Shown here: positions 1,789-3,038 of the stretch, piece after piece | Numbering within the stretch: the stretch's first letter is position 1 | How the letters are laid out: the number at the start of each line of letters is the position of its first letter | IMG/VR virus record: IMGVR_UViG_2700989489_000020 | DNA from: a virus | Taxonomy: Duplodnaviria > Heunggongvirae > Uroviricota > Caudoviricetes | Strand: one strand, 5' to 3' | DNA length: 8,601 bases | The notes under the pieces: model-generated | The model's database searches: none | Told to the model about the DNA's origin: nothing | Seen by the model: the letters and a program-made list of their open reading frames with translations, nothing else | Program-made: the position numbers and the translations under genes

Positions 1789-1944
1789 TTACTCCTCAGG
1801 TTCGTAAGCTGTGAAGACAGCGACCTCCGTCTGGCCGGTTCGGATTCGTACCTCGCAGAGGTCTTTCCTCGTTACCAGTGCCGTCACTATGACGGTTAAA
1901 CAGATGACGATCAGGGCGATTAACATCGCCTTTTGCTGCTTCAT
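1789..1944 (-). CDS. hokD: Hok/Gef family type I toxin (51 aa), HokD/RelF-like
   Basis: Translation from the internal Met of ORF 1789..2001: MKQQKAMLIALIVICLTVIVTALVTRKDLCEVRIRTGQTEVAVFTAYEPEE, matching my recollection of HokD. AAGGAG 9 nt upstream of that ATG. Single TM segment plus conserved Cys. Confidence 0.85.
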   Translation of the reverse strand: MKQQKAMLIALIVICLTVIVTALVTRKDLCEVRIRTGQTEVAVFTAYEPEE

Positions 1945-2136
1945 AGCCTGCTTCTCCTTGACCTTTCGGTCCGTAAGAGGCAATCTATATGTGACGAGCA
2001 TATAGGGGCCTCACTTCGATTTATAGTCGGGTGGGGCTTTTATCTATCTGCCGTTGGTGTTCATGCCCGAGGCAGATAGCCTCAAGCACCCGCAGCAATC
2101 CTACTTAACTCTGCCGTTACAGCAAACCGTTTTCGC

Positions 2137-2160
2137 CCGATATGGGAATTCCCATATCGG
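2137..2160. repeat. 24-bp perfect palindrome CCGATATGGGAATTCCCATATCGG
   Basis: Read directly; symmetry breaks at the flanking bases. Intergenic between the binding-protein gene and the hok leader. Confidence 0.9.
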
Positions 2161-2243
2161 AATGAATTCAGTTCACCTGGCGAGGCTTAGCGTACAATTT
2201 TTTCCGTTTTGTGAGCTGCCCCTACATGCCGCTGGCGCGGCAT

Positions 2244-2273
2244 CCGGAAAAAGAATCCACGTCCTGAAGGACG
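2244..2273 (-). terminator. Possible intrinsic terminator after the substrate-binding protein gene
   Basis: Short stem CGTCC-TTCA-GGACG directly after the TGA stop (2280-2282), followed on the minus strand by TGGATTCTTTTTCC. Stem is short, so weak. Confidence 0.35.
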
Positions 2274-2279
2274 AGGATG

Positions 2280-3038
2280 TCAAGTGCCTTTCCTGGTCCA
2301 GCCATATTTTTTGAATGCAGGCGCCGCTTCATCGGTTTGTAGCCATTCTGCAAATCGACGGGTTTCATCATTTGCATCCTGACGTACTGTAATGTTCATA
2401 TCACGCCATATCACGTAGTCTGGCGCTATTTCCACGACATCACCAATTTCTGGATTACTGGCTGCCCAGTCAGCCCAGGTTATCCAGACATCTGCTCCAG
2501 GCTGATTCTCAAGAGCCTTACGTGCAGTTCCGCTATTGGGCGCATATAAAATAATATTTTTTCGGATTGCGGCGACAGTTTCTATATTCCCTTTACGTCC
2601 GGCAATATCTTCCCAGACGCCAGTGCCTGATGTATTACTGGTACCACCACCATCATTAACAATTACGCCAATCCCAGGTCTGGTCAGGTCGTCAATACTC
2701 CGGATATTTTTAGGATTACCTTTCTTTACCAGTAAAATACTTTTTCGCAGATAAAGAGGCTGAATATCTTTTTCACTGAAGCTGTCTTTATGGTCCCGAA
2801 TGATAGCCAGAGCAGATTGTTCTGATGCGCCAAACAAGATATCTGCATTTTTTTTGGCATCTTCATTCCATTTGTTCTGTGGGCCGTAATGAACGTTCAC
2901 TATAATACCTGTTTTTTCGGCATAAAGTTTGGCTGCATCAAGCAAGGCTGTATGCGGGCCACCAGGACCATACAGATTGATATCAGCATAAGCAGCAGAA
3001 GACAGGAATATTAAAAAACCTGCCATTATGTTCCTCAT
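2280..3038 (-). CDS. Secreted periplasmic substrate-binding protein (ModA-like solute-binding fold), orphan cargo gene
   Basis: ORF track 252 aa. AAGGAG 7 nt upstream of the ATG at 3038. Sec-type signal peptide MRNIMAGFLIFLSSAAYA then DINLYG. C-terminal ...FKKYGWTRKGT resembles the ModA C-terminus from memory. Visibly AT-rich relative to neighbours. Confidence 0.75.
   Translation of the reverse strand: MRNIMAGFLIFLSSAAYADINLYGPGGPHTALLDAAKLYAEKTGIIVNVHYGPQNKWNEDAKKNADILFGASEQSALAIIRDHKDSFSEKDIQPLYLRKSILLVKKGNPKNIRSIDDLTRPGIGVIVNDGGGTSNTSGTGVWEDIAGRKGNIETVAAIRKNIILYAPNSGTARKALENQPGADVWITWADWAASNPEIGDVVEIAPDYVIWRDMNITVRQDANDETRRFAEWLQTDEAAPAFKKYGWTRKGT

Follow-up and report, generated by a model that had tools for sequence, protein, structure and literature searches.

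A 24-bp perfect palindrome upstream of hok in an EHEC lambdoid prophage is probably the stranded core of a KilA-N/BstA-like gene

Rickettsia palindromic elements (RPEs) are reportedly inserted in frame in protein genes, and gene remnants or boundary sequences are said to occur at the mosaic joints of lambdoid phages. In PPompW/OI-57 prophages, adfO (paa) and the hok-like ckf serve as virulence markers. BstA proteins are neutralised by a short cognate DNA element, aba, that lies inside their own locus (Owen et al. 2021, PMC8585504). At a length of 63 bp, aba lies right at the beginning of bstA-BTP1, and it requires the CCCGCC direct repeats at its two ends (PMC8585504).

The palindrome described here resembles aba in being a short DNA-level element within a prophage gene that carries a KilA-N(-like) DNA-binding N-terminal domain; aba is cognate to its own protein, and the E. 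coli genes bearing the palindrome have a BstA C-terminal domain. It differs from aba in that it is spacer-less and occupies codons ~55–61 of canonical PF04383 KilA-N domains. That it is the published aba itself could be ruled out, since there is no resemblance in sequence or architecture and no inverted repeat of the palindrome's kind is present in the BTP1 bstA gene. As in the RPEs, a palindromic element is found inside ORFs and is read in more than one frame, and in a weak alignment with yeast Mbp1 (E 0.27) the residues that the palindrome encodes lie within an insertion as compared with fungal APSES domains. The RPEs, however, measure 100–150 bp and occur in many unrelated genes, whereas the present element measures 20–30 bp and occupies one fixed site in one domain family. 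As at other lambdoid mosaic joints, a short conserved stretch lies between exchangeable nin-region modules, with flanks that differ between prophages; here, by contrast, the retained piece is exactly the conserved palindrome of what appears to be a lost gene, and the breakpoints cluster at its edges.

The window, that is, the whole stretch of 8,601 nucleotides that was analysed, belongs to an EHEC lambdoid prophage of the OI-57/PPompW type. The 1.1 kb around the palindrome showed 100% identity to many EHEC chromosomes, in which paa (AcfC-family adhesin) and a hokD-like gene are annotated. On the minus strand the order is replication genes, DUF1627, a fimbrial pseudogene, paa, hok, a rem-like gene, DUF968/ydfU, rusA and Q; locally, paa is followed by its terminator, the palindrome and hok/sok. 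The features of this region are as follows.

2280–3038, minus strand: paa/adfO cargo gene (AcfC-family adhesin).
2260–2273, minus strand: intrinsic terminator hairpin of paa, followed by a T run (terminator scan).
2168–2184, minus strand: small-ORF remnant, comprising the last codons and the TGA (2170–2168); identified by alignments, intact in related prophages.
2137–2170, plus strand: 34-nt patch of a KilA-N (PF04383)/BstA-like gene (33/34 identity to KilA-N coding segments; BLAST hits within KilA-N CDSs of three phages; Pfam and PADLOC matches of the parent genes).
2137–2160, no strand: 24-bp perfect palindrome CCGATATGGGAATTCCCATATCGG, centred on an EcoRI site.
2092–2133, minus strand: putative hok promoter region with −35 TTGCTG (2125–2120) and −10 TAGGAT (2103–2098), from 933W homology and hexamers.
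1942–2091, minus strand: hok mRNA 5′ leader with antisense sok region (Rfam RF01794, 103.9 bits, model 1–157).
1789–1944, minus strand: hok (ckf/hokD-like) toxin CDS.

An earlier note on this DNA had described the palindrome as perfectly self-complementary, and CCGATATGGGAATTCCCATATCGG was indeed found exactly at 2137–2160, with 12-bp arms and a spacer of 0. The placement given there, between the cargo-gene terminator and hok, was borne out as well, the spacer measuring 278 bp from the paa stop (2280) to the mok/hok frame (1789–2001, minus strand). The same is true of the reported lack of a U tract, as the palindrome runs on as GCGAAAACGG on the minus strand and as AATGAATTCAG on the plus strand. 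It is the longest perfect palindrome of the 8.6-kb window; the runner-up, GTTCCGGTACCGGAAC, measures 16 bp and lies at 925–940. A search tolerating 3 mismatches found no second occurrence in the window, and none of 200 dinucleotide shuffles yielded a match. The expected number of perfect palindromes of at least 24 bp in 8.6 kb is 5e-4, and a length of 24 bp was reached in 1 of 1000 first-order Markov simulations; a chance palindrome was ruled out on these grounds. The 44-kb PPompW prophage contains a single match, even allowing 3 mismatches, and an operator of the resident prophage repressor could be ruled out by the lack of further related sites. The EcoRI sites at 2165–2170 and 2146–2151 lie 13 bp apart (19 bp start to start).

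A Rho-independent terminator was also rejected; a hairpin can form, but a T run is present on neither strand and the terminator scan was silent at the palindrome. Scanning of positions 1500–2400 on both strands against Rfam 15 (E ≤ 1) returned nothing over 2137–2160, which rules out a curated RNA family as the identity of the palindrome. The element is similar to intrinsic terminators and REP-type extragenic palindromes in being a stable, G+C-containing, intergenic hairpin downstream of a gene, and it is set apart from them by the missing U tract, the zero-spacer perfect dyad, the probable coding origin and the absence of any terminator-scan or Rfam call. A second hairpin (ATGCCGC GCCA GCGGCAT; 2222–2245, minus strand) was observed just downstream of the paa terminator, in the paa-specific part of the spacer.

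The relation of the palindrome to hok/sok was assessed using the Rfam RF01794 hok/sok leader model, which matched end to end on 2091–1942 (103.9 bits) with model position 1 at 2091. By comparison with the R1 hok mRNA (GGCGCUUGAGG...), the hok 5′ end of the window would lie at 2091/2090. The −10 and −35 hexamers were read relative to the Rfam-defined 5′ end, a simple consensus scan having made no call, and the palindrome would accordingly be placed at about −46 to −69 of the putative hok start, upstream of the putative −35. The possibility that it forms part of the hok mRNA leader was not upheld, because the RF01794 match covers 2091–1942 and the palindrome lies 46–69 bp upstream of the predicted 5′ end; judged by the same match, it is within neither the hok transcript (~400 nt) nor the sok gene. 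Like the described hok/sok elements (tac, ucb/dcb, fbi and the sok promoter), the palindrome is associated with a bona fide hok/sok locus, which it directly adjoins; it differs from them in lying outside the transcript and outside the common hok cassette and in being absent from most hok loci.

Comparison with related hok loci revealed that the palindrome is not kept with them. In the hokW locus of 933W, promoter homology extends up to window position 2133 and is followed directly by another small ORF, the palindrome being absent, while the hok locus of phage 673R7 differs upstream of the −10. The palindrome was ruled out as a part of the hok cassette, since the 933W hokW cassette ends at 2133 without it. 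Conversely, E. coli JNEC-KY203 (L004, 2850–3270) retains the small ORF, the palindrome with 1 mismatch and a hok-promoter-like stretch, and hok/sok has been swapped from ~+1 for oppositely oriented PAPS-reductase/IbrB-like (ibrAB-like) genes. Matches to hok-like sequences were found in 4727 genomes and the palindrome in only about 800–950. A binding site for an activator or repressor dimer of the hok promoter, centred near −57.5, would suit both the dyad symmetry and the position, as −46 to −69 is typical of upstream activator sites. Most hok loci nevertheless lack the palindrome, hokW of 933W has coding sequence at this place, the palindrome stays in JNEC-KY203 where hok is gone, and no second site is present in the prophage, so that a regulatory site of this kind seems highly improbable. 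The hok loci function without the palindrome, which is not needed by hok.

Two further observations concern the hok region itself. The putative −10 (2098–2103) reads TAGGAT in the paa-linked haplotype and TAGAAT in most other prophage copies, a difference that may weaken the hok promoter of the window. At 1699–1780 on the minus strand, Rfam gave a match to isrK that stays below threshold (24.9 bits; gathering score 50); it covers the hok 3′ region and terminator and is probably driven by the terminator hairpin alone.

The full paa–hok spacer was present in 577 of 5426 complete E. coli genomes, and a further ~200 contained only its hok-proximal ~90 nt. Prophages of the latter kind lack paa and carry instead a hydrophobic 34-aa ORF, MSDDISLAMEGALAVIAVVGVYCLVVFLMDRLGN, which ends 7 nt before the palindrome and is annotated as WP_001278450/WP_001278459 in related prophages. 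As only the last ~17 nt of this small ORF are left in the window (2184–2168), the joint of the paa cassette can be placed at about 2185–2188, and that of the hok cassette lies at about 2133–2136. In L115, a variant small ORF (type B) is joined exactly at the palindrome edge, and the palindrome thus persists with three right-hand partners, namely paa, small ORF type A and small ORF type B. Its presence in paa-less prophages, to which homology begins at ~2184, ruled it out as a part of the paa cassette. On the basis of these joints and of the comparisons with 933W, L115 and JNEC-KY203, the palindrome belongs to neither the paa nor the hok cassette. Relative to 933W (L128), the small ORF and the palindrome (~170 bp; L003 and L002) are bracketed by a ~19-bp direct repeat, GGGTAAAAACG(G)TT.GC.GG, the only 933W copy of which abuts a different small ORF (MTWPEAF...CRWR) on one side and the hok promoter on the other. 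Judging from this arrangement, the small ORF and the palindrome have the look of a module that entered at a boundary sequence.

A sensitive search of phage genomes located the palindrome and its right flank inside CDSs of ~255 aa in three phages, where they encode ..LSRDMGIPISELIQSFKGG... Window positions 2137–2170 on the plus strand were 33/34 identical to KilA-N coding segments and 32/34 identical to that of Proteus phage vB_BPM-V3, with homology beyond the palindrome over 10 nt on the plus-strand side only (GGAATGAATTCA vs GGAATTAATTCA). The parent genes were identified by a Pfam KilA-N match (4e-27) and a PADLOC match to the BstA C-terminal domain (3e-21). In the plus frame the patch reads ..DMGIPISE followed by TGA, compared with ..DMGIPISELIQ.. 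in intact genes, and another stop lies 11 codons upstream; the patch has lost its open reading frame, and the annotation of the 44-kb prophage contains no KilA-N gene. Phage vB_EcoS-673R7 (L006) has an intact KilA-N gene on the promoter side of hok/sok (Rfam 101.5 bits) in divergent orientation. A KilA-N gene divergent from hok was also found in 117 complete E. coli genomes. In the phage and in these genomes alike, the gene occupies the slot that the patch has in the window, downstream of the replication and DUF1627 genes. The patch has the same orientation relative to hok as the intact KilA-N genes of 673R7 and of these 117 genomes.

These alignments point to a KilA-N gene as the source of the palindrome, a conclusion that we hold with high confidence, tempered by the shortness of the flank match and by the fact that no intermediate, larger KilA-N relic was found between hok and the small ORF. 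Several details do weigh against reading the patch as a relic. The homologous flank extends over just 10 nt, of which 9 are identical, and on the left the resemblance is weak (TCGCCC against TCGGCC/TCGACC). Immediately upstream of the −10, the hok side of 673R7 and the window part ways, so that a simple deletion in this particular phage would not give the window. Furthermore, the breakpoints lie 0–14 nt from the palindrome in several independent contexts, and such edge breakpoints, together with the free-standing copies and the low counts for control palindromes described below, suggest that the palindrome itself was retained or has spread more than they suggest random decay. The several orphan copies of each O157 genome (see below) count on the same side. 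Donation of the sequence by the prophage block to KilA-N genes is very unlikely, given that the motif occurs in the KilA-N genes of many phyla. In most KilA-N alleles of enterobacterial phages the sequence is instead GGGGATTCCC, in which the central EcoRI site is destroyed at the price of one arm pair; the change may reflect restriction avoidance.

Taken as a whole, the statement that the palindrome is a core left over from a KilA-N/BstA-like gene, stranded at a mosaic joint and by now largely passive, is probably correct, and is held less firmly than the KilA-N origin by itself. In the ancestral lambdoid prophage, a KilA-N gene would have adjoined hok and pointed away from it. Deletions and module exchanges would then have removed the rest of the gene, stranding the core between the hok cassette (~2133–2136) and the small ORF, most of which was presumably replaced later by the paa cassette in this lineage (joint at ~2185–2188). 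The palindromy would have been inherited from the parent gene and not evolved in place. The orphan copy is now probably largely passive, offering at most a hairpin of −18 kcal/mol in antiterminated read-through RNA or a leftover dyad site. The suggestion in the earlier note of a recombination junction scar was therefore right in essence, though in a particular sense: a 34-nt remnant, apparently of a KilA-N gene, lies between the joints at ~2133–2136 and ~2185–2188, but the palindrome was not made by the junction and its symmetry appears to be inherited.

The palindrome was further followed within KilA-N genes across phyla. The exact 20-mer GATATGGGAATTCCCATATC was found at 82 loci in a one-genome-per-species collection, compared with ~0.5 expected for a random 20-mer; these loci span cyanobacteria, Chloroflexota, Bacteroidota, Patescibacteria, Proteobacteria and others. 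Approximately 45 of the 82 lie within KilA-N ORFs encoding DMGIPIS (among L186–L265). Composition-matched control palindromes gave 0, 0 and 2 matches in the viral collection, compared with >120 for the real one. As a control for retrieval bias, 160 KilA-N loci from viral and metagenome contigs (L268–L428) were retrieved by peptide patterns only, and the homologous 20 nt were extracted. The 61 distinct 20-mers obtained included 16 different perfect palindromes, and most of the others were complementary at 9/10 positions. Complementary cells amounted to 486/610, against 363.5 ± 8.2 in the shuffle null (maximum 395 in 2000 shuffles), and sliding the partner arm by 1–3 nt lowered complementarity from 0.85 to 0.06–0.32.

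The third base of codon 2 was paired with the third base of the Pro codon as C-G in 20, G-C in 32 and otherwise in 9, which is a synonymous choice without a protein-level reason. Variants encoded DIGIPIS (GATATCGGAATTCCGATATC), DAGIPAS, ETGIPVS, VAGIPAT and AMGIPIA, and in the DMRIRIS variant (GATATGCGAATTCGCATATC) the conserved Gly and Pro are both changed to Arg with the symmetry kept. The central four bases co-vary too (AATT, TATA, GATC and ATAT), and the mismatches comprised 10 sense-strand G.U and 17 A.C, with no preference for G.U; since the central bases co-vary and G.U is not preferred, symmetry at the DNA level is favoured over an mRNA hairpin. In a divergent Bacteroidota KilA-N subfamily (MAGs L186, L193, L212, L242 and L263), the same 20-mer lies within a 30-bp palindrome, GGAGCGATATGGGAATTCCCATATCGCTCC, starts one nucleotide later relative to the conserved upstream RLKST motif and encodes RYGNSHI; further downstream these genes return to the usual frame, having gained about 4 residues. 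In a Calothrix MAG (L189, 2600–3090), three palindromes were observed in or upstream of a KilA-N-RHH fusion gene adjoining parA: the exact 24-mer inside the gene; GATACGGGAATTCCCGTATC, which belongs to a KilA-N relic that is non-coding and has arms that co-varied; and TATGGGAATTCCCATA, a bare 16-mer. No second copy of the palindrome that would indicate a general operator layout was found in the 300-nt flanks of the 160 KilA-N loci.

Quasi-palindrome correction is an established mutational process, and the symmetry could be its by-product if template switching copied one arm onto the other, leaving a DNA element without function. The co-variation of the arms is strand-symmetric and includes the central bases, as this process predicts. 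It leaves unexplained, however, why the same 20-mer is kept in different phyla, and even out of frame, when the protein around it has drifted to ~30–60% identity, and why a conserved Gly and Pro were sacrificed jointly for symmetry; we therefore give it very little credence. The KilA-N gene family apparently keeps the palindrome because the DNA itself matters. Full-text literature searches returned no description of a palindrome or inverted repeat in KilA-N genes, nor of GGGAATTCCC in phages, and as far as we found the co-varying palindrome inside KilA-N genes is undescribed.

The orphan copies were then compared among themselves. The 34-mer was present in 959 of 5426 complete E. coli genomes, as ~800 intergenic orphans and ~120–130 copies within KilA-N CDSs. 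Genomes of O157:H7 had 8–12 BLAST places, corresponding to 4–6 loci each, as the palindrome matches both strands. Among 123 copies retrieved from viral contigs by their flanks, the form ACGATATGGG..CATATCGG, in which the outer pair is lost, accounted for 73 and for 1 more whose 3′ flank differs, the window type for 20 and a 1-nt deletion in one arm for 25. Four rarer types, making up 5 copies, each had a single core substitution, some with a change of the outermost base. No compensatory arm changes were found among the 123 copies; the changes were one-sided, and the single substitutions were C-to-T. The flanks (hok promoter and leader) are as invariant as the palindrome itself, so that there is no sign of selection special to the orphan copy in this comparison, which has no power to detect it. 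The orphan core has been kept although its flanks were replaced several times independently, the joints falling at the edges of the core.

At the RNA level, transcripts of the early-right operon that read through the paa or small-ORF terminator might contain a functional hairpin, which would block 3′ exonucleases or be processed, thereby defining upstream 3′ ends and insulating the hok promoter and 5′ end. Folding predicts a 10-bp stem with an AAUU loop from either strand (−18.3/−18.2 kcal/mol, z about −4 to −4.6), forming the apex of a longer stem in the 194-nt intergenic RNA. The palindrome begins 7 nt after the small-ORF stop in related prophages (in the window, TGA at 2170–2168 and palindrome from 2160), and the two single substitutions of the orphans, both C-to-T, would keep G.U pairs on the transcribed strand. 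Two such changes are too few to be meaningful, however, the U tract is absent and the variant with a 1-nt bulge is common. In addition, the parent family has no sense-strand G.U preference and its would-be loop bases co-vary, and loci of the 933W type manage without the palindrome. A role in RNA appears improbable, if somewhat less so than a regulatory site of the hok promoter.

Outside KilA-N genes, ~30 exact copies of the 20-mer in other phyla are free-standing. Their neighbourhoods are varied (ribosomal protein S6 (rpsF), PfkB kinase, integrase, Bro-N and antiterminator Q), and a common gene neighbourhood was ruled out, as the neighbours are unrelated to each other. Such copies include L210, L221 (Patescibacteria), L229, L207/L261, L252 and L236. 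Their form varies: in some the palindrome reaches 42 bp, some have A/T runs on their flanks in the manner of bidirectional terminators, and some are accompanied by further palindromes that share the GGAATTCC centre.

The stranded-core reading outlined above has its main competitor in a DNA site that still works, a protein-binding site having been among the options of the earlier note. The orphan may be kept as a cis-acting dyad site for KilA-N/BstA-like proteins of co-resident or invading phages, serving as a decoy or in self-immunity in the manner of aba; a prophage with the site and without the gene could then escape or tune KilA-N-mediated interference. The constraint on the DNA of KilA-N genes (486/610 vs 363.5 ± 8.2, 16 perfect palindromes and DMRIRIS) is consistent with such a site, as are the co-varying Pro third bases and central bases with no G.U excess (10 vs 17 A.C) and the Bacteroidota 20-mer kept one base out of frame. 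The neutralisation of BstA by a cognate DNA element in its own locus (PMC8585504) provides a precedent. The orphans are moreover abundant (~800 in 5426 E. coli genomes, 4–6 per O157 genome), their core is kept through flank replacements, and the free-standing exact copies in other phyla exceed control rates by far (the controls being from the viral collection). On the other side, the published aba differs in sequence and place and BTP1 bstA lacks the palindrome, changes in the arms would ordinarily be incompatible with a protein site whose specificity does not co-evolve, one orphan lineage carries an uncompensated 1-nt deletion, and KilA-N genes generally have no second copy in their 300-nt flanks. 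On balance, a working orphan site is possible yet rather unlikely. The broader proposal that the palindrome is a portable functional DNA element, a cognate site of the encoded KilA-N protein used for self-recognition or self-immunity like aba, with arm variants giving specificity and orphans acting as decoys, is one that we put forward tentatively and regard as doubtful to a similar degree.

For hok biology the result is deflationary, as the palindrome can be ignored when hok/sok (ckf) regulation in OI-57 is modelled. For the KilA-N family, a widespread subfamily holds a perfectly symmetric 20-bp word at a fixed site, and compensatory changes maintain it even where conserved residues or the reading frame are sacrificed. 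Among the KilA-N proteins is the BstA anti-phage defence family, for which a DNA element within the gene itself acts as an off switch. The idea that follows is that the KilA-N domain may recognise a site in its own coding sequence, in which case the orphans might matter in prophage–prophage conflict. If this is true, orphan copies would let a prophage that lacks the gene escape or exploit interference of the KilA-N/BstA type.
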